This document shows positions 867-19,472 of a stretch of 19,472 nt of DNA, piece after piece; the stretch's first letter is position 1, and each line of letters begins with the position of its first letter. This stretch comes from a virus. The position numbers were made by a program, and so were the translations under genes. The DNA lies in the UHGV virus genome UHGV-0294315; one strand, 5' to 3'. The notes under the pieces are model-generated. The model did not search any database. It had not been told where the DNA came from and saw only the letters and a program-made list of their open reading frames with translations.

Positions 867-1045
867 CTTGTTTTCCTCGCACGTTCTCTAAGCCACCGGA
901 TATCCCACAGGTGAGCTGTGTAATTGAAGGTTTTTACGTCAGATTCTTTTGGGATTGGCTTGCGTTTATTTCTGGAGCGTTTCGTTGGAAGGTAATTGCA
1001 GTTTTCGCAGATTATGTCGGTGAAACTTCGTCGCTGTCGTCTCAT
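863..1045 (-). CDS. ninE: NinE
   Basis: [60 protein letters not shown] matches lambda/DLP12 NinE. Start taken at the internal ATG (1045), which overlaps the upstream stop as ATGA. Confidence 0.8.
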
Positions 1046-1644
1046 GCCGCCCTGTCTCCCCATCGCGCTTTCATTGTTTCATTTGCAAATCGCCAGAATC
1101 TTCCTTTGTGATATGAGCTTTCGCCATTACAGCAACGACTAATTGACGAACTATCAAATCCTTCTCTGACAGCATCCATAGCTGCTTCATAATAAACCTC
1201 CTCCCCAGTTTTCATGTCAGTAGAAATAACAGCTTTACTGGCAGGATGATCACCACTAAATTTACCTAGCGATATAGGTATTCTTCCATTTTGTTTATAT
1301 CCGTGCTTTGAGTTTTCAGAATGTGATACCCATTCAAGGTTTTCAGCCCTATTGTCATCTCTTTGCCCATTTTTGTGATTAACTACCAAGCCATCACAGA
1401 ACCCTGTACAGAATGCTTTCGCAACTATCCTGTGGGCGCTGTATTTCTTACCGTATACCTTTATTTGAAGATATCCTGTCGACTTGCACTTGAATGGTTT
1501 TACGCTAGTGCCATTAATTATTTTCTTATATGGCCTCTGTCTGGTTGATGTTACTGTAATTTCCCTCGTAATAGACCTGAAATTCCCTTTATTGCTAACC
1601 TGATAAAATGGAATTCCTTCGATATCTACCCAAACCTCAATCAT
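1042..1644 (-). CDS. HNH homing-endonuclease-like protein (NUMOD4-like N-terminus plus HNH_3-type motif), C-terminal tail derived from a ninB 3' end
   Basis: N-terminus [17 protein letters not shown] (NUMOD4-like); [21 protein letters not shown]...[28 protein letters not shown] (HNH_3-like). Last residues [12 protein letters not shown] match the lambda NinB C-terminus. Strong RBS GGAGGA upstream; start overlaps ninB stop. Confidence 0.7.
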
Positions 1645-7457: not shown

Positions 7458-7709
7458 ATGGAATTTCATGAAAGTGCGATTTATGATTTTCGCGCTAACG
7501 CAAATTCAGTAAAACCACAGCCAATTGCAGTTCTTTTTAAAACAATGGGTGCGTGGGCTGTTTTATGCTTCGCCGCTGATGACACTGACGCAAGAATGGC
7601 AATAGGCCAAGAGATGGAGATGGACCCGACAAACGATGAATTCATAATTTATGGCGCTCCATCTAATTACTTACTTGATACCTGCAACATTTACAAAAAG
7701 GCTGCCTGA
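7458..7709 (+). CDS. Hypothetical protein (83 aa)
   Basis: RBS GAGGTGA upstream of ATG, 8 nt after the N stop. No family recognised. Confidence 0.55.
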   Translation: MEFHESAIYDFRANANSVKPQPIAVLFKTMGAWAVLCFAADDTDARMAIGQEMEMDPTNDEFIIYGAPSNYLLDTCNIYKKAA

Positions 7710-7729
7710 TGGTGGCCTTTATTTTTAGC
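7700..7729 (+). terminator. Terminator-like hairpin with T-tract after the 83-aa gene
   Basis: AGGCTGCC-TGAT-GGTGGCCT stem-loop (with G-U pairs) followed by TTATTTTT. Same loop and architecture as the stronger terminator at 14552. Confidence 0.45.
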
Positions 7730-7748
7730 ATAAACAACAGAGGTGAAT

Positions 7749-7883
7749 ATGAACGCAGTTGAATTTACAAAATGGATGGCAGAGCAAGATATCACAGGAG
7801 CCGACGAAAAGGCTGTGTACTACATGGCTCTGCTATGGATTCACAAAGCAAAAGAGGCTGCAAATGCTCTTGGAGGTGAGTAA
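7749..7883 (+). CDS. Hypothetical small protein (44 aa)
   Basis: RBS AGAGGTGA upstream; MNAVEFTKWMAEQDITGADEKAVYYMALLWIHKAKEAANALGGE; stop overlaps the next start (TAATG). Below the ORF-track cutoff. Confidence 0.35.
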   Translation: MNAVEFTKWMAEQDITGADEKAVYYMALLWIHKAKEAANALGGE

Positions 7884-8071
7884 TGAAAGTAAAAATAACT
7901 GCTTCTAATACCAGTTTTGTTAGTGTTGGTGATATTACAGAAGTAATAACAAACCATGATGGAACACAAGTTATGTGGTCTGATTTTTGTAAAAGATATG
8001 AGCGAGTTAGTTGGTGTAAAAACACATGGGGAGTCGAATACGAAGAAATACCTGAAATGCATGACGAATAA
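7883..8071 (+). CDS. Hypothetical protein (62 aa), AT-rich accessory gene
   Basis: ORF MKVKITASNTSFVSVGDITEVITNHDGTQVMWSDFCKRYERVSWCKNTWGVEYEEIPEMHDE. Visibly AT-rich compared with its neighbours, followed by two hairpins. Confidence 0.45.
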   Translation: MKVKITASNTSFVSVGDITEVITNHDGTQVMWSDFCKRYERVSWCKNTWGVEYEEIPEMHDE

Positions 8072-8166
8072 GCACTGTGTATTCATTCCAACGAGTGAAT
8101 ACACGGAGCAATGTCGCTCGTAACTAAACAGGAGCAGACTTGTTCTGATTATTGGAAATCTTCTTT

Positions 8167-8194
8167 GCCCTCCAGTGTGAGGGCAGTTTTTTTT
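8167..8194 (+). terminator. Intrinsic terminator upstream of the coiled-coil gene
   Basis: GCCCTC-CAGTGT-GAGGGC hairpin followed by AGTTTTTTTT. Confidence 0.55.
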
Positions 8195-8206
8195 GACGGA
8201 GGATAT

Positions 8207-9175
8207 ATGAGTGAAGTAACAGATTTAGTTGTTATTGAAAAAGCAAATGCAATGACTGTATTTCAGTCTGCCGACCAGATTGAAGAAATTCTCCAAAAGG
8301 TTGAACGTGAAGTTATGTCCTTTGTGCCTGATATCACAACGGCAAAGGGCAGAAAGGAGATCGCTTCTCTGGCGTATAAAGTTGCGCAGACGAAAACATA
8401 TCTCGATGGTCTTGGCAAAGACCTTGTTGCTGAACTGAAGGAAATTCCAAAGCTAATTGATGCCAACCGCAAGACAGTGCGTGATCGCCTTGATGAGCTG
8501 AAAGCCAAGGCACGCCAGCCTCTTACTGATTATGAGGAAGAACAGGCGCGGATTAAAGCCGAAGAAGAAGCTAAGGCAGCAGCTGAAGCTCTCGCAAAGC
8601 AAATTGAGTCTGACCATGAAATAGCGATTTTGATGGATCGCGAATTTGACCGCCAAAGAGAAGAGGCAAGACTCAAAGCGGAGCAGGAAAAGCGAGAGCA
8701 TGAAGAACGCTTAAAAAGAGAAGCTGAAGAGAAAGCCAGAGCTGAAGCCGAAGCAAAGGCAAAAGCCGAAATTGAAGCAGCAGCAAGACGAGAAGCAGAG
8801 GCTAAGGCCGCAGCGGAACGTGCAGAGCGTGAACGCATTGAAGCCGAGCAACGAGCACAGCGCGAAGCAAAAGAGGCAGCAGAACGAGCTGAAAGAGAAA
8901 AGCAGGCAGCAATTGAAGCAGAACGCAGAAAAGCACAGGAGGAGGCTGAACGAATCCGGCGCGAGGCTGAAGCAAAAGAGCAAGCCAGAATAGCAGAAGA
9001 AAAAAGAATCAAGGAAGAAGAAGAGCGTAGAGCAAAGGATAAAGCTCACCGGAAAGAAGTAAATAACAAAATACTTGCTGACCTTATCAAGGTTGGCGCA
9101 TCAGAAGATGTTGCTAAAAATATCATAACAGCCATCGTAAAAGGCGAAGTATTCGCAACAAAAATAACCTACTAA
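8207..9175 (+). CDS. Coiled-coil protein with a TolA-like Glu/Ala/Lys/Arg-rich central repeat region (322 aa)
   Basis: Start at the internal ATG 8207 (RBS GGAGGA); the track's 5' extension would include the terminator. Middle section is a long EAKAKAE / ERAERE-type low-complexity helix flanked by unique N- and C-terminal segments. Confidence 0.6.
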   Translation: MSEVTDLVVIEKANAMTVFQSADQIEEILQKVEREVMSFVPDITTAKGRKEIASLAYKVAQTKTYLDGLGKDLVAELKEIPKLIDANRKTVRDRLDELKAKARQPLTDYEEEQARIKAEEEAKAAAEALAKQIESDHEIAILMDREFDRQREEARLKAEQEKREHEERLKREAEEKARAEAEAKAKAEIEAAARREAEAKAAAERAERERIEAEQRAQREAKEAAERAEREKQAAIEAERRKAQEEAERIRREAEAKEQARIAEEKRIKEEEERRAKDKAHRKEVNNKILADLIKVGASEDVAKNIITAIVKGEVFATKITY

Positions 9176-9199: not shown

Positions 9200-9331
9200 A
9201 TGATTTACGCAATCGCGGGAGGCGCTCGCATGGGTGCCTTCCAACTAAATGAATCTTTACTTGAACGAATCACCCGTAAATTACGTGACGGATGGAAAAG
9301 AGTTGAGGTCTTATTATGCGCAATGAAATAG
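9200..9331 (+). CDS. cIII: CIII (FtsH inhibitor, stabiliser of CII)
   Basis: Manual translation MIYAIAGGARMGAFQLNESLLERITRKLRDGWKRVEVLLCAMK; the core ESLLERITRKLRDGWKR is identical to lambda CIII as remembered. Confidence 0.8.
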   Translation: MIYAIAGGARMGAFQLNESLLERITRKLRDGWKRVEVLLCAMK

Positions 9332-9468
9332 CCATTAATCACCAGATGCTTCGTGCGGCACAAAACAAAGCAGTAATAGCCAGATTTATTGGTGATTCAA
9401 AAATGTGGCTTGAAGCAAATAAAGCGATGAAATCAGCGATCAACATTCCGTGGTATCGCAGGAAATGA
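9316..9468 (+). CDS. kil: Kil-like protein (host cell-division inhibitor), overlapping the cIII 3' end
   Basis: MRNEIAINHQMLRAAQNKAVIARFIGDSKMWLEANKAMKSAINIPWYRRK; overlap with cIII and position match the lambda cIII-kil arrangement. Sequence similarity to lambda Kil is from uncertain memory. Confidence 0.5.
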   Translation: MRNEIAINHQMLRAAQNKAVIARFIGDSKMWLEANKAMKSAINIPWYRRK

Positions 9469-9722: not shown

Positions 9723-10430
9723 ATGGATTTGAATAAATTCGATGAGCCATTCAGCCCTGAAGATATCGAATGGCGAATACAGCAAAGCGGTAAAACACGC
9801 GATGGCAAAGTGTGGGCTATGGTGCTGGCTTATGTCACGAACCGGGCAATCATGAAACGCCTGGACGATGTTTGCGGCAAAGCAGGATGGCGCAATGAAT
9901 ACCGCGATATTCCCAACAACGGCGGCGTTGAATGCGGCATATCAATCAAGATTGATTCCGAATGGGTAACCAAATGGGATGCTGCTGAAAACACGCAGGT
10001 AGAAGCCGTCAAAGGCGGTCGTTCCGGTGCAATGAAGCGCGCTGCCGTTCAGTGGGGAATCGGTCGGTATCTGTATAACCTTGAGGAAGGTTTTGCACAA
10101 ACATCTCTCGATAAAAAGCAGGGATGGCACAGGGCAAAACTCAAGGATGGAACAGGATTTTACTGGCTCCCTCCATCGCTGCCGGGATGGGCAATCCCAG
10201 CATCAGATAACAAACCATCACCAGAAAATACCAACCAGAAATCTCCATCGGTTGACTGCGAACAAATCCTGAAAGACTTCAGCGATTATGCGTCAACAGA
10301 AACTGACAAGAAAAAACTCATCGAGCGTTATCAGCGTGACTGGCAATTAATGGCTGGCAACGAGGAGGCGCAGGCTAAATGCGTTCAGGTAATGAACATC
10401 AGAGTTAACGAACTAAAACAGGCGGCATAA
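9723..10430 (+). CDS. Single-strand annealing protein, Rad52/Rad22-like family
   Basis: 235-aa ORF in the bet/erf position, directly upstream of ssb. AYVTNRAIMKRLDDVCGKAGWRNEY and GAMKRAAVQWGIGRYLY resemble the Rad52-type annealing fold. Family assignment is from memory. Confidence 0.6.
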   Translation: MDLNKFDEPFSPEDIEWRIQQSGKTRDGKVWAMVLAYVTNRAIMKRLDDVCGKAGWRNEYRDIPNNGGVECGISIKIDSEWVTKWDAAENTQVEAVKGGRSGAMKRAAVQWGIGRYLYNLEEGFAQTSLDKKQGWHRAKLKDGTGFYWLPPSLPGWAIPASDNKPSPENTNQKSPSVDCEQILKDFSDYASTETDKKKLIERYQRDWQLMAGNEEAQAKCVQVMNIRVNELKQAA

Positions 10431-10946
10431 ATGGCAAGCAGAGGCGTAAATAAGGTGATCATTATTGGTCGCCTTGGGCATGATCCAGAAATCAGATATT
10501 CACCATCAGGAACGGCATTTGCAAACCTTACCGTTGCTACGTCAGAACAATGGCGTGATAAGAAAACTGGAGAGCAAAAGGAGCAGACGGAGTGGCACCG
10601 CGTGGTAATGAGCGGGAAACTGGCAGAAATTGCCAGCGAATATCTGCGAAAAGGCTCTGAGGTTTATCTTGAAGGCAAATTGCGGACAAGAAAATGGCAG
10701 GATCAAAGCGGACAGGATCGGTTCACTACCGAAGTCATCGTGGGCGTTGGTGGAACCATGCAAATGCTTGGTGGCAAGCAAGGAGGCAATGAACAGTCTT
10801 CACCTCAGCGAAATAACGGTCAGCAACAAAGACAGCAATCTCAGCAGCAGGGGAATCACAGCGAACCACCTATGGATTTTGACGACGATATACCCTTTGC
10901 ACCAGTAACTCTCCCCTTCCCTCGTCACGCTATTCACGCAATTTAA
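10431..10946 (+). CDS. ssb: Single-stranded DNA-binding protein SSB with a 15-residue C-terminal extension
   Basis: [23 protein letters not shown]...[50 protein letters not shown]...MDFDDDIPF is near-identical to E. coli SSB, but the ORF continues [15 protein letters not shown] before the stop. Confidence 0.9.
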
Positions 10947-10959
10947 TCAGGAGAAAATC

Positions 10960-11256
10960 ATGCCAGCGCCTCTGTATGGTGCGGACGACGCGCGCCGCTG
11001 TTCCGGCAATTCCGTATCGGAGGTGCTGGATAAATTCAGACAAAACTACGACCTGATAATGTCGCTACCGCAGGAAACGAAAGAGGAAAAGGAATTTCGC
11101 CACTGTATATGGCTTGCAGAGAAAGAAGAACGAGAGCGAATTTACCAGACATCAATCCGACCATTCCGAAAAGCCACATATACCCACTTCCCTGAATATA
11201 TCGACCCGCGCCTGCGTAATTACCGCTCACGCTATGGCGCTATCAGTAATGACTGA
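10960..11256 (+). CDS. Hypothetical protein (98 aa)
   Basis: RBS AGGAGA upstream of ATG; intact ORF in the early-left operon. Confidence 0.5.
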   Translation: MPAPLYGADDARRCSGNSVSEVLDKFRQNYDLIMSLPQETKEEKEFRHCIWLAEKEERERIYQTSIRPFRKATYTHFPEYIDPRLRNYRSRYGAISND

Positions 11257-12424: not shown

Positions 12425-13070
12425 CTATCAGACGCTGCGTGAGATAGCAAAACAGGCAACACAGGGTGAATGGGTCGCATTTATTTCGTCTGGTACTGGT
12501 ACATATGCGGTGCATACACCTGGTGATAAACGATGTGAAGACGTTATCAAATGGACCGGCTTTGATGGACAGAACAACGCAGAGAACAACGCTCGTTATA
12601 TCGCAGCTTTCAACCCTGAAGTAGTGCAGGCACTGCTGGATGAACGGGAAAGAAACCAGCAATACATCAAACGCCGCGACCAGGAGAACGAGGATATTGC
12701 GCTAACGGTAGGGAAACTGCGTGTTGAGCTGGAAGCCGCAGAGAAGCGCAACGCAAAATTACAAAGCGAGAATGCATACATCCGCAACCGGTTCAAAGAA
12801 CTGGACCTGTTAATCGGGAAAAACATTCTGGTCATGCAGGCTGCCATTATCGAATGGCAGGCAACTGGCGACGCTAAGAGCGGACTGGCATGGATTTATA
12901 ACACACTGTTTGGCCCTGGCGAATTACCGGACAAATCTGAGAAAGATGCTCAGGCCTACTTTAATCGCAAATATGCACCGATTGACGAAAAGCTTATGGC
13001 GCTTCACAAGTGGTTTTGGGAACAAAGTGAAGCCGAGCGCTCCGCTGGCATTCGCATCAAAGGAGAGTGA
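12411..13070 (+). CDS. Ead/Ea22-like phage protein (219 aa)
   Basis: GTG start 7 nt after AAGGAGG; N-terminus MSKIDYQTLREIAKQATQGEWV resembles the conserved start of enterobacterial ead/Ea22-like proteins (from memory). Confidence 0.5.
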   Translation: MSKIDYQTLREIAKQATQGEWVAFISSGTGTYAVHTPGDKRCEDVIKWTGFDGQNNAENNARYIAAFNPEVVQALLDERERNQQYIKRRDQENEDIALTVGKLRVELEAAEKRNAKLQSENAYIRNRFKELDLLIGKNILVMQAAIIEWQATGDAKSGLAWIYNTLFGPGELPDKSEKDAQAYFNRKYAPIDEKLMALHKWFWEQSEAERSAGIRIKGE

Positions 13071-13071
13071 A

Positions 13072-13437
13072 ATGGCACTGACGAAAAAACAACGTGCAGA
13101 ATTGCGCATGAAGTTTGGCGGTCGCTGTGCTTATTGCGGCTGTGAACTTGGCGAAAAGTGGCATGCAGACCATGTAAAACCGGTCATTCGTTTTGATGGA
13201 AATATGCTTCACCAGGAACGTGACGATATATCCAACATGGTTCCGGCATGCCACCCATGCAATCTGCACAAGCATTGCAGTAGCCTGGAAGATTATCGGC
13301 GAATTATCAGTGATGGTCGTCGTGAATTCCTTGCATCCGGGAAAGGCAAAGCGCTGGTTCGTATGGGATTGGTTGAAATGAAATCTGACCCGGTTGTGTT
13401 CTGGTTTGAAAAATATCAAGAAGGGGCTACGGTATGA
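13072..13437 (+). CDS. HNH endonuclease (121 aa)
   Basis: Start at the internal ATG (RBS AGGAGA); HNH signature CAYCGCEL...WHADHVKP...NMVPACHPCNLHK. Confidence 0.7.
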   Translation: MALTKKQRAELRMKFGGRCAYCGCELGEKWHADHVKPVIRFDGNMLHQERDDISNMVPACHPCNLHKHCSSLEDYRRIISDGRREFLASGKGKALVRMGLVEMKSDPVVFWFEKYQEGATV

Positions 13438-14818: not shown

Positions 14819-15090
14819 AATAGCGGGTAAAATATTTTTCACATCTAAAAAACACCATTCCAATCAATCCCCTGCCGCGCCAAGTAGATGTCTGCAGGGG
14901 ACACTTTAAAGACCTTTCTCTACATTTCACTTCATTACATAACCACTTAAAAAAACAGTAAGTTATCACCGAATCGGCCTGATTTTCATTTCAGTTAATT
15001 TCATGACATTACAACCTCGTGATGGTATAAGTGATGGTATTCCCCAGTTCGATATGCAGATACCATCAATCTACCAAAATGAGTACAGAT

Positions 15091-16365
15091 ATGGCCATTA
15101 ATGTGCTTTCCCCCAAACAGATAGAAAACGCCAAGCCGAAGACCAATGATTACAAACTTACCGATGGAGGGAGTTTGTATCTACTGGTACGAAAGACTGG
15201 TGGAAAATACTGGCGTATGAATTATCGTTTTGATGGAAAACAAGTGACATTGGCATTAGGGGTCTACCCAGATGTCTCACTTGCAACAGCGCGGAAACGG
15301 CGTGATGAAGCCAGGCAACTACTAGCCGATGGTCGTGATCCTCGCGAAGCAAAGAAACCCAAAAAGGAAGACCCAATTTCCCCCACGTTCGAGAGTGTTG
15401 CCAGAGAGTGGCATAGTAGAACGATAGGGCATCCTGAGTGGAAAGAGATCACCCGTAAAAAAATTCTCCGAGAAATGGAAAACCACCTCTTTCCTGCCAT
15501 CGGTTCAAAGCCTATCGATACGCTCAAAACCCGTGACTTGATGCCGATGCTGGTTGAGATGACTGAGAAAGGAATTGGTGCCACAACGAGCCGGGTAAAA
15601 ACCACTATGACGAGCATCTTCCGTTATGCCGTGCAACGTGGAATTGTCGATTACAACCCTGCCCACGATCTAAAAGGTGCAATTACGACCCCCAAAGTAC
15701 GACATCGCCCCGCACTACCTCTCGAACGTTTACCTGAACTGTTAGCGAAAACGAGAAGTTACACGGGAAGACCATTGACTCGCCTAGCAGTTCTATTTTC
15801 CCTGCACACTTTTGTGCGATCCAGCGAACTACGACATGCCAGATGGGAGGAGATCGACATTGAAAATGGGCTATGGACGATACCAGGACAACGTGAAGAG
15901 ATCGCAGGGGTTAAATTCTCAGAGCGGGGTGCAAAGATGGGGGCTGCTCATTATGTCCCGCTATCTAGTCAGGCTATCGGGGTACTGGAGGATATAAGGA
16001 AAATCAGTGGTGAATATCTGCTGGTTTTCCCCGGTGACAGCAACCCATATAAACCGATGAGCGAAAACACAGTTAATAAAGCACTGCGAACGATGGGTTA
16101 CGACACTCAAAGTGATGTTTGCTTGCATGGGTTCAGGGCGATGGCCTGCTCTGCACTGACCGAATCAGGACTCTGGTCACGCGATGCAGTTGAACGGCAG
16201 ATGAGTCACCAAGAAAGAAACGAAGTGCGGGCAGCATATGTGCATCTTGCGCAGCACATGCAGGAACGCCGCAGAATGATGCAATGGTGGTCTAATTATC
16301 TGGAACTAAATAAGGACGAATTTCATGCTCCTTATGACTTATCAGGTATTAACATTATCAATTAA
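15091..16365 (+). CDS. int: Tyrosine integrase, P4-type (DUF4102 arm-binding N-terminus plus phage integrase catalytic domain)
   Basis: MAINVLSPKQIENAKPKTNDYKLTDGGSLYLLVRKTGGKYWRMNYRFDGKQVTLALGVYPDVSLATARKRRDEARQLLADGRDP is a typical P4-family integrase N-terminus. Start could also be ATG 15079 or the track's GTG 15031. Confidence 0.85.
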   Translation: MAINVLSPKQIENAKPKTNDYKLTDGGSLYLLVRKTGGKYWRMNYRFDGKQVTLALGVYPDVSLATARKRRDEARQLLADGRDPREAKKPKKEDPISPTFESVAREWHSRTIGHPEWKEITRKKILREMENHLFPAIGSKPIDTLKTRDLMPMLVEMTEKGIGATTSRVKTTMTSIFRYAVQRGIVDYNPAHDLKGAITTPKVRHRPALPLERLPELLAKTRSYTGRPLTRLAVLFSLHTFVRSSELRHARWEEIDIENGLWTIPGQREEIAGVKFSERGAKMGAAHYVPLSSQAIGVLEDIRKISGEYLLVFPGDSNPYKPMSENTVNKALRTMGYDTQSDVCLHGFRAMACSALTESGLWSRDAVERQMSHQERNEVRAAYVHLAQHMQERRRMMQWWSNYLELNKDEFHAPYDLSGINIIN

Positions 16366-18515: not shown

Positions 18516-18800
18516 ATGAATATTTCAAACGGGCACAACGGTGCTCAGGGCCAGACTTTGCCTGAAAAACACAATACCGGTGCTTTTGCCTATGGGTTGT
18601 CAGAGGACGGTTTCGGAAAGCTGACCCGCGCAAGAAATGCCTGCGACATGCTCCAGCTTCTCTTTTCTGAATACCCGTCTCAGGCCGGAGCACTGGACGC
18701 AGGCTTTGCGCCTGGTGTCGCCGCGCTGATGGAGTACCTGCGGGCAGATTTGACGGATATTGCACACAGCTGCGCACTGATTGAAGGAGGTGCCAGATGA
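18516..18800 (+). CDS. Hypothetical protein (94 aa)
   Basis: RBS GGAG upstream of ATG; intact ORF. Confidence 0.5.
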   Translation: MNISNGHNGAQGQTLPEKHNTGAFAYGLSEDGFGKLTRARNACDMLQLLFSEYPSQAGALDAGFAPGVAALMEYLRADLTDIAHSCALIEGGAR

Positions 18801-19180
18801 ACCAGCCGCAGGTTTCCATTTTCCCGGCAGAAATGACCACCGCGCTTTACCGGTGGGCTATTGCTTCAGCATGGCGGCAGAAAATGCTGAACGAAACTGG
18901 CAATGATCAGTATGGTCCGCACAGCCTGACGGTGGAGCGTATTGAAATGGCCATTGCGCTGCATATCGAGTGCGCACTGATTAACGAGTACGGCGAAGCA
19001 CAGGGCGCCGCTGCCGCGCTGGCACTGCTGACTGACATGCTGGAGCCGTCACTGCTGACCGCGCCGCCGGTACTGACCGCGCGCGGTTGTGAAGTAATGG
19101 CGGAGATGTACCGCACGCTTCCGGCGGCCTTTGATGTCTGCTGCAGTACCGGTGTGACGTTGTATCAGGGGGAAGTATGA
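18797..19180 (+). CDS. Hypothetical protein (127 aa)
   Basis: ATGA-coupled to the genes on both sides. Confidence 0.5.
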   Translation: MNQPQVSIFPAEMTTALYRWAIASAWRQKMLNETGNDQYGPHSLTVERIEMAIALHIECALINEYGEAQGAAAALALLTDMLEPSLLTAPPVLTARGCEVMAEMYRTLPAAFDVCCSTGVTLYQGEV

Positions 19181-19472
19181 CAATACAGACGGTTACGCAG
19201 ATTTCAGCCGCCGCGCGGGGGAAATGGCCCGTTATTCTGCAGATGCTGCGTATTGATGTACCTGAAAACGGCAGGCACGGTCCCTGCCCGAAATGTGGGG
19301 GCAAGGATCGTTTTCGCCTTGATGACCTTGACGGGCGCGGGACGTGGATCTGCAGCCAGTGTGGCAATGGTGACGGTCTGGATCTGGTTAAGCTCGTAAC
19401 CGGTTACAGCGTCAGAAAGGCTGCGCAGGAGGTGGCGCAGATGCTTAATGTGCCGGATGTGCAGGAACTGCC
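19177..19472 (+). CDS. P4 alpha-type primase, N-terminal zinc-binding domain (gene runs off the right edge)
   Basis: Open to the window end; GPCPKCGGKDRFRLDDLDGRGTWICSQCGNGDGLDLV is the primase zinc-ribbon pattern CPxCGG...CxxCG. Confidence 0.6.
   Translation, partial: MTIQTVTQISAAARGKWPVILQMLRIDVPENGRHGPCPKCGGKDRFRLDDLDGRGTWICSQCGNGDGLDLVKLVTGYSVRKAAQEVAQMLNVPDVQEL

Follow-up and report, generated by a model that had tools for sequence, protein, structure and literature searches.

A prophage gene product named as TolA belongs to the D3 gp53/Sf6 gp33 family, whose genes accompany phage recombination modules and whose end domains flank a long charged helical tract

Introduction

The closest described relative of the protein considered here is gp53 of phage D3, which has been implicated in the targeting of phages by Gabija. 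Deletion of D3 orf51-66 was the only route of escape from Gabija, and the mutants grew normally (Hong et al. 2025 preprint, PMC12407980). Three redundant licensing factors were found, namely Exo-Erf (orf51-52), gp53 and gp66, and all three had to be lost for D3 to escape (PMC12407980). Supplied alone in trans, orf53 restored targeting of D3 and JBD30 escape phages, and carriage of orf53 by a plasmid lowered its transduction into Gabija cells by 1-2 logs (PMC12407980). Escape was dependent on RecBCD and lost in recB-, and the authors proposed that licensing factors prevent RecBCD from reaching linear phage DNA, as Mu-type Gam and Exo-Erf do (PMC12407980). Two further, uncharacterised licensing factors are D3 gp66 and a Mu GemA homologue of JBD30; the preprint does not characterise gp53 itself, and the orf53 gene is non-essential for lytic growth (PMC12407980). 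Here we describe a homologue of gp53 of 322 amino acids (aa), encoded at positions 8207-9175 of the virus genome UHGV-0294315, a stretch of 19,472 nucleotides (nt) that is referred to as a whole as the window.

Other proteins are found in comparable positions elsewhere. Firmicutes phages have Gam(Mu), DUF2483, DUF1351 or Gp157 in the analogous slot next to erf, recT or sak4, and the shared slot has been read as implying analogous functions (PMC8093625). Like the gp53 family, DUF1351 and Sipho_Gp157 (PF05565) lie beside recombinases, are helical and have no defined function (PMC8093625).

Results

The 322-aa protein is an enterobacterial member of the D3 gp53/Sf6 gp33 family (PHROG 1376). It matched phrog_1376, a PHROG with no function label, at 8e-110 over its full length, and BLASTP against D3 orf53 gave 52% identity over residues 5-122 (E=1e-37); the similarity of Sf6 gp33 to D3 had already been noted by the curators of Sf6. 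The N-terminal domain of the family, its tripartite layout and a co-oriented recombinase gene downstream are all present, and alignments revealed that the tripartite architecture and a C-terminal motif are common to members from E. coli through Sinorhizobium phages. In RefSeq, D3 orf53 encodes 354 aa and lies directly upstream of erf (orf52) and exo (orf51). Both proteins have the N-domain (52%), three parts, an ending of the (V/I)PH(V/I)xIxY type and a position at the head of recombination genes. They differ in that D3 gp53 contains about 45 extra residues after the N-domain, absent from the window protein, and in that the D3 gene abuts erf-exo, whereas in the window cIII, kil and a small open reading frame (ORF) intervene and genes for a Rad52-like protein, a single-stranded DNA-binding protein (SSB) and Abc2 lie downstream. 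The gene and its parts are as follows.

8198-8202, plus strand: Shine-Dalgarno sequence GGAGG, 4 nt 5' of the ATG at 8207, read from the sequence
8207-9175, plus strand: coding sequence of 322 aa (36.8 kDa, isoelectric point (pI) 5.5), enterobacterial D3 gp53/Sf6 gp33 family (PHROG 1376)
8207-8536, plus strand: N-terminal domain, residues 1-110, conserved; two short helices packed on the start of a long helix
8537-9031, plus strand: charged helical tract, residues 111-275, variable; spacer resembling an ER/K single alpha-helix
9032-9172, plus strand: C-terminal domain, residues 276-322, conserved; pI 9.5

Searched alone, the N-domain retrieved 5,019 representatives of 50%-identity clusters. 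With 3,595 of these clusters at E<=1e-10, it ranks among the larger families of phage proteins that lack a curated domain model. The domain is always N-terminal, in proteins of about 190-430 aa from phages of Escherichia, Klebsiella, Yersinia, Vibrio, Pseudomonas, Acinetobacter, Erwinia, Shewanella and Sinorhizobium. The sequence of the family and one phenotype are already on record, and the family is barely characterised; in the literature searched we did not find its size, its near-universal pairing with four recombinase families, its single-helix nature, the length polymorphism of its tract or its systematic mis-annotation as TolA.

An initial annotation, made from the sequence of the window alone, had called the 322-aa ORF, and the gene is real as judged by the GGAGG before its ATG, its conserved copies and purifying selection. 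Near-identical genes (97-99.9% identity) were present in 327 phage records, including Sf6 gene 33, CUS-3, HK544, IME10, Sf101, mEp phages and Stx1a phages, and also in many complete E. coli genomes; the concern raised earlier that the repetitive middle might be a sequencing or assembly artefact is thereby excluded. The ratio of nonsynonymous to synonymous substitution rates (dN/dS) was 0.047 for the N-domain, indicating strong purifying selection, and about 0.19 for the C-domain. The Ser/Ala/Cys-rich antisense ORFs pointed out in the initial annotation are there, at 8530-9012 (minus strand, 160 aa) and 8711-9049 (minus strand, 112 aa). A longer reading from an in-frame ATG at 8111 (354 aa) was rejected as spurious because it would cross a terminator hairpin with its T-run and because homologues lack the extension, those of five bacterial groups all starting at MSE..L.V. 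The extension 8111-8206 is almost certainly not translated. It is sometimes picked by ORF callers, and several IMG/VR loci start with 'MSLVTKQE...' or 'MEIFFALQCEGN...'. Frameshifted or shortened copies of the gene occur in IMG/VR loci L048, L049, L050 and L069, and also in L020 and L047, some of them, for instance, encoding 124-aa products that stop within the tract. Either cryptic prophages carry these copies as pseudogenes, or the low-complexity sequence of the tract was misassembled.

The distinct N-terminal (~110 aa) and C-terminal (~50 aa) segments that had been described as flanking the charged tract are indeed different from it in composition. Residues 1-110 are ordinary (33% hydrophobic), as are the ~47 residues of the C-domain. 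The conserved basic stretch of the N-domain comprises residues 40-110, with a pI of 9.26 that equals the family median of 9.26, and its nearly invariant residues are D42, T45, G48, R49, S54, K63, G70, K71, D85, R88, L95, P105 and E110. The C-domain runs from H-R-K-x-(I/V)-N through helix, G-turn and helix to an extended tail that always carries (I/V)-x-Y/F at the very C-terminus; its H and terminal Y are conserved at 90% or more in the family alignment. Among 138 representatives both end domains are basic (pI about 9.3 for residues 40-110 of the N-domain and about 9.1 for the C-domain) and the whole protein is acidic. A profile search of the C-domain against the PDB gave non-significant matches to the LATS2 UBA domain (E=0.068) and RuvA domain III (E=0.46), a weak hint that its fold may be UBA-like or RuvA-III-like.

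Single alpha-helix (SAH) domains of the ER/K type occur in myosin VI/X, caldesmon and other proteins, and to our knowledge they have seldom been described in phage or bacterial proteins. The tract of the 322-aa protein looks like such a helix and is probably not a coiled coil. Residues 150-270 consist of 31% E, 27% A, 18% R, 11% K and 6% Q, i.e. 93% EAKRQ and 7% hydrophobic residues, so that the near-pure E/A/K/R composition reported initially was correct. The heptad-like repeats reported with it were not recovered: the best-register hydrophobic occupancy of a/d positions was only 0.12-0.25, and no 3.5-residue periodicity was found in the tract. Compared with 2,000 shuffles, opposite-charge pairs at i/i+3 and i/i+4 were in excess (87 versus 53.3 +/- 5.6, z=6.0) and like-charge pairs depleted (z=-5.1). 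AlphaFold2, run with a 31-sequence alignment, predicted for the full-length protein (predicted local distance difference test score, pLDDT, 83) helices at 12-20 and 22-38 and then one helix at 46-295. This last helix has about 250 residues and would measure about 37 nm as a straight rod; its single interruption is a low-confidence kink at 173-182. For a natural variant of 206 aa the predicted helix 46-179 was unbroken, with pLDDT above 90. It is this charge pattern, the missing hydrophobic seam and the continuous predicted helix that argue for an ER/K single helix; helix breakers are lacking as well, hydrophobic a/d heptads as expected of a canonical coiled coil were not seen, and the insertions and deletions (indels) mostly do not keep a heptad register. 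The tract shares with SAH domains a content of about 60% charged residues, the E-to-K/R i/i+4 pattern, the lack of a hydrophobic seam and of Pro/Gly, and the tolerance of length changes. It differs from most characterised SAH domains in being very Ala-rich (27%) and longer (120-240 residues).

Among close relatives, variation in length is confined to the tract. They measure 245-333 aa, with every indel (+11, -1, -13, -16, -18, -20, -22, -26, -32, -47 and -77 residues) inside the tract and both end domains conserved; -77 alone is a multiple of 7, and the indels are placed asymmetrically. Complete natural variants of 197-218 aa retain both ends, and other clades reach about 404 aa, so that whole proteins span 197-404 aa. 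The length variation that the initial annotation suggested looking for is therefore found, and its idea of a tripartite protein of the spacer type agrees with where the indels fall. In 83 diverse representatives with both ends recognisable, the tract had a median length of 178 aa (120-240 aa in 80 of the 83) and comprised 22% A, 22% E, 12% R, 9% K and 0.6% Pro+Gly, with a net charge of about -9. Compared with a relative of the same length, the window protein was 51% identical in the tract and 86% in the N-domain. Slippage at a DNA tandem repeat was rejected as the source of the variation, as no clean tandem array was found in the tract, which has only imperfect repeats of 33-37 nt that are 64-73% alike; one +11-aa allele is a local duplication. 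An SMC/Rad50-like antiparallel hairpin joining the N- and C-domains is disfavoured by the asymmetric deletions and by the unbroken helix of the short variant.

The label coiled coil, given in the initial annotation and implied by the NCBI name 'coiled-coil domain-containing protein', is thus doubtful. A two-stranded parallel-dimer or Ala-rich antiparallel coiled coil in place of a monomeric single helix would be compatible with the 27% Ala, which raises a/d occupancy to 0.5-0.75 if Ala is counted, with the low-confidence break at 173-182 of the full-length model as a possible hairpin, and with the amphipathic helix 46-110 (heptad occupancy 0.5-0.75), which could dimerise. We consider such a structure fairly unlikely, given the strict hydrophobic occupancy and missing periodicity noted above, a charge pattern typical of ER/K helices, the confidently modelled unbroken helix of the short variant, and indels that mostly break the heptad register and are asymmetrically placed.

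PGAP names the gene "cell envelope biogenesis protein TolA" in hundreds of genomes, and the initial annotation had likewise called the tract TolA-like. The likeness holds for composition alone: TolA domain II and the tract are both Ala/Glu/Lys-rich and helical in composition, which is the origin of the database name. Against TIGR02794 the protein scored 8.6 bits, with the cut-off at 59.45; the TolA Pfam domains were not found in it or in 137 relatives, and a signal peptide was not found in the 322-aa protein. The suggested membrane association showed no sign either, as no transmembrane segment was found (maximum Kyte-Doolittle 19-residue mean 1.03, at residue 293, and none near the N-terminus). 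Unlike TolA, the protein has no membrane anchor and no C-terminal TolA domain, and its gene lies in the pL operon of a prophage between an N-like gene and cIII/kil, not in tol-pal. TolA identity of the 322-aa protein is excluded, and that it might be a cell-envelope protein of the TolA type is extremely improbable. Hundreds of clusters in Enterobacteriaceae genomes and many phage records are thus misnamed TolA, which gives grounds for correction.

No other family could be assigned. Pfam, NCBIfam and PADLOC identified none in the complete protein or in either end. The Pfam models of Sipho_Gp157 and of lambda or Mu Gam gave no match at E<=1 with the whole protein or its N and C segments and none among 138 diverse members, that of DUF1351 gave none either, and nothing recurred in the Pfam scan of these members. 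Examined separately, as had been proposed, the two terminal segments found no known housekeeping family, and the N-domain found the phage family described above. Weak matches to EzrA, TraG, LmuB and Cas8a were discarded as compositional. Single-sequence and profile searches of the PDB gave no significant relative; Foldseek with the full model gave no fold match in the PDB (best E 0.98) and in BFVD only unnamed members of the same family. The N-domain was also considered as a diverged DUF1351 (PF07083), which was rejected on the lack of a Pfam match and an hhalign probability of 0.9-2.3%, obtained with a template of 31 relatives of a Pfam-verified DUF1351 protein so shallow (effective sequence number, Neff, 1.6) that very remote homology is still possible. 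The gp53 family thus differs from DUF1351 and Gp157 in giving no Pfam match in the window protein and 137 relatives, and in E. coli strain 222 a copy of the gene that is 99.9% identical lies beside a gp157 gene, both being present. A literature search on 'TolA-like' prophage proteins and on the function of Gp157 or DUF1351 found nothing further.

Genes of the family are near-constant companions of four phage recombinase families. We used 265 IMG/VR loci obtained with five family queries, located the gene with a hidden Markov model and classed neighbours by running BLAST with every ORF against Pfam-named clusters; 268 loci contained the gene, and removal of 9 truncated ones left 259 usable. In this redundant sample, grown from the five queries and comprising 26 clusters at 90% N-domain identity, a recombinase gene followed on the same strand within about 1.3 kb in 252 of the 259 loci (RecT 129, ERF 87, Rad52-like 25, Sak4/AAA_24 11). 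Median gaps between the two genes were 7-11 nt for Pseudomonas and Acinetobacter phages; for alpha-proteobacterial phages, where overlap is usual, the median was -19 nt, and enteric lambdoids, with cIII and kil in between, had about 520 nt. A YqaJ exonuclease gene came next after the recombinase in 71/72 Pseudomonas, 33/33 Acinetobacter and 11/11 alpha-proteobacterial loci. Gene orders in individual phages are listed here, with [gene] marking the family member.

D3: [gene]-erf-exo
JBD44: [gene]-erf-exo
phiLM21: [gene]-erf-yqaJ-ninB
Acinetobacter phage TCUAN1: [gene]-recT
Klebsiella phage ST15-VIM1phi2.1: [gene]-gam-bet-orf-exo
Vibrio phage phiV039C: erf-ssb-[gene]

The association is with the recombination module rather than with one recombinase, as recombinase families are swapped beside near-identical N-domains: N-domains at least 90% identical were paired with two to four recombinase families. 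Downstream of its 99.9% identical gene, E. coli strain 222 has RecT and Gp157 where the window has Rad52-like, SSB and Abc2 genes, and near-identical genes elsewhere precede ERF, RecT (with Gp157) or Sak4 (with a DUF669-like SSB) modules. The partner of the protein would thus be something common to all four modules, such as DNA ends, single-stranded DNA (ssDNA) or a host factor. Members of about 250 aa in L008 (Vibrio phage 1.209.O, Zobellviridae), L189, L190 and L192 have no recognisable recombinase nearby and neighbours without a Pfam family; such Vibrio members are either exceptions to the synteny or lie beside unrecognised recombinases.

The order of family gene, annealing protein and exonuclease in Pseudomonas, Acinetobacter and alpha-proteobacterial phages mirrors lambda gam-bet-exo, the family gene occupying the position of gam. 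The D3 homologue in addition shares its Gabija-licensing phenotype with Mu-type Gam. In contrast to lambda and Mu Gam, RecBCD antagonists whose genes head Red-like operons and to which they have no sequence or fold similarity, the family proteins are much larger and contain a long charged helix; moreover, they coexist with Gam or Abc2 in many enteric phages.

The window itself is the early region of a lambdoid/P22-like prophage, with NinB, a DnaB-type helicase and the replication O protein encoded on the minus strand. The plus strand carries, in order, genes for the CI repressor, a weak N-like protein, small ORFs, the 322-aa protein, cIII and kil, and from kil onwards a Rad52/22-type annealing protein, SSB, Abc2, Ead/Ea22 and integrase. 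The elements flanking the gene are as follows.

8165-8186, plus strand: hairpin followed by a T-run, element extending to 8196; resembles an intrinsic terminator of the tL2A type, directly 5' of the gene
9200-9331, plus strand: cIII (PF02061, 4e-15)
9316-9468, plus strand: kil (PF06301, 1.7e-20)
9723-10430, plus strand: Rad52/22-type annealing protein (PF04098, 5e-26)
10431-10946, plus strand: SSB (PF00436, 3.7e-38)
10960-11256, plus strand: Abc2, P22-type anti-RecBCD protein (PF11043, 1.5e-61)

The placement in the lambda ea10 slot made in the initial annotation is correct: lambda has N-ral-ea10-cIII-kil-gam-bet-exo, and here the gene is directly upstream of cIII and kil. These two genes are lambdoid-specific and separate it from the recombinase, the Rad52/22-type gene starting 547 nt 3' of the 322-aa gene on the same strand. 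The hairpin has a stem of 8 bp with 5 GC pairs and a T8 tail, and the homologous hairpin in the Sf6 record is labelled terminator tL2A, beside a mosaic 'boundary sequence'. Because this terminator-like hairpin lies directly upstream, expression of the 322-aa gene probably requires N antitermination of the pL transcript. A cytoplasmic, very elongated, delayed-early product of the pL operon is the best explanation of the 322-aa protein. An exonuclease gene was not recognised in the recombination module at 9723-11256. In the window cIII has only 43 aa, versus 54 aa in lambda, and overlaps the start of kil by 16 nt; the SSB start codon directly abuts the stop of the Rad52/22-type gene. Some E. coli prophages have about 350 bp of additional DNA, with a gene for a superinfection exclusion protein, between the gene and cIII, the junction 3' of the gene being another mosaic insertion point.

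Discussion

The initial annotation could not place the protein in a known function. This part of it can now be amended by a lead, as the gene is a conserved head gene of recombination modules and a homologue of D3 orf53, so that an E. coli lambdoid gene is linked with the one phenotype that experiments have shown for the family. Our preferred, still tentative reading is that of a recombination-module accessory protein that may work at the ends of linear DNA or hinder access by RecBCD, its helix serving as a spacer. The gene would be the leading gene of a phage homologous-recombination module, expressed early-left with delayed-early timing, and its cytoplasmic product would consist of a basic helical N-domain, an ER/K helix spacer and a basic C-domain with an invariant aromatic end. 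Such a protein could act at the ends of linear phage DNA, by binding there or via a host factor; it may thereby limit the loading or action of RecBCD and favour end processing, circularisation and recombination by any phage annealing protein. The ER/K helix would serve as a semi-rigid, length-tolerant spacer between the end domains, and as a side effect DNA carrying a gp53-type protein would become a target of Gabija. The proposed action at DNA ends or on RecBCD is deduced from gene position, the phenotype of a D3 homologue with a 52% identical N-domain and the preprint model, the consistently basic end domains also speaking for it, and by analogy with its D3 homologue the window protein may license Gabija as well. 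The dispensability of the D3 gene fits an accessory or counter-host function. Functionally the protein comes closest to the proteins encoded in the gam slot of Red-like operons, and in appearance to an ER/K single-helix linker protein.

Several observations weigh against action at DNA ends or on RecBCD. The searches of the PDB by sequence and fold found no DNA-binding fold, and the end domains carry little net positive charge. GemA and gp66 are also licensing factors, yet they are not known end-binders (PMC12407980). Abc2 or Gam coexists with the gene in 42/67 enteric loci; the window has Abc2, and Klebsiella phage ST15-VIM1phi2.1 has Gam next to the gene. From this coexistence with RecBCD inhibitors it follows that the protein is not a simple Gam substitute. 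In lambdoids the gene and the recombinase are kept apart by cIII and kil, and a mosaic boundary lies immediately 5' of the gene. Overall identity between the D3 and E. coli proteins is only about 46%, and the synteny sample is redundant, with its 26 clusters and five seed queries.

Two other functions have to be weighed. The protein might be a scaffold or mediator of recombination with no role towards RecBCD, tethering SSB-ssDNA, the replisome or the nucleoid to another partner and so raising the local concentration of recombinase, with Gabija licensing an indirect outcome of altered DNA ends. We regard this as unlikely, even though it would account for the tight junctions with the recombinase gene (overlap or gap of -67 to +11 nt), for the independence from recombinase family, for two conserved ends joined by a helix of about 100-240 residues as in concentration-setting ER/K linkers, and for a C-domain weakly like the protein-binding UBA and RuvA-III modules. 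The occupants of the Firmicutes slot, Gam(Mu), DUF2483, DUF1351 and Gp157, have been read as analogous (PMC8093625), which would fit as well. Yet mutants with loss of D3 orf52-66 grow normally (PMC12407980), the sole homologue phenotype known is shared with RecBCD-excluding factors, and in E. coli strain 222 the gene coexists with one for a Gp157 protein. It is improbable, in our view, that the gene merely rides in the early-left operon with a host-takeover, anti-defence or exclusion function like ral, sieB, cIII and kil. Such a role would suit its place in the variable ea10 slot, bounded by a mosaic 'boundary sequence', its accessory neighbours cIII, kil and Abc2, the superinfection-exclusion gene inserted directly 3' in some E. 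coli prophages, and the non-essential nature of the D3 gene (PMC12407980). However, adjacency to a recombinase is kept in enteric, Pseudomonas, Acinetobacter and alpha-proteobacterial phages that have no other early-operon layout in common, and it survives swaps of the recombinase family, which chance hitch-hiking would not preserve.

Should the preferred reading, i.e. a role at DNA ends or towards RecBCD, be true, the family would be a missing third component of many "Red-like" systems and a general determinant of phage sensitivity to Gabija, and it would matter for recombineering in non-model hosts, Pseudomonas and Acinetobacter among them. A bolder version, which is speculative and itself improbable, sees the family as widespread DNA-end factors whose basic ends would grip a DNA end or host enzyme, the helix being a ruler or tether of 15-37 nm. 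Such proteins could join the two ends of the injected genome to each other, or one end to the recombination machinery, and at the same time exclude RecBCD. They would operate with any annealing protein and would be a phage counterpart of eukaryotic end-tethering factors, exploited by Gabija as a signal of invasion. The long ER/K helix with its natural length variants is in addition a rare and tractable single-alpha-helix spacer from a bacterial virus.

Other features of the window

Two small ORFs without a Pfam family lie between the N-like gene and the terminator, at 7458-7709 (83 aa) and 7883-8071 (62 aa); in lambdoid phages this region, 7458-8071, is the variable one of the ral/sieB type. 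A search of the whole window found no tRNA gene, so that the prophage may end against another mobile element instead of at a tRNA attachment site. The tyrosine integrase gene (15031-16365) is followed by co-oriented, tightly packed ORFs to position 19472, among them a DUF5375 protein at 18797-19180. Two HNH-type endonuclease genes, at 1042-1644 (minus strand) and 12910-13437 (plus strand), one of them with NUMOD4 motifs and adjoining ninB, are possibly homing endonucleases inserted in the prophage.

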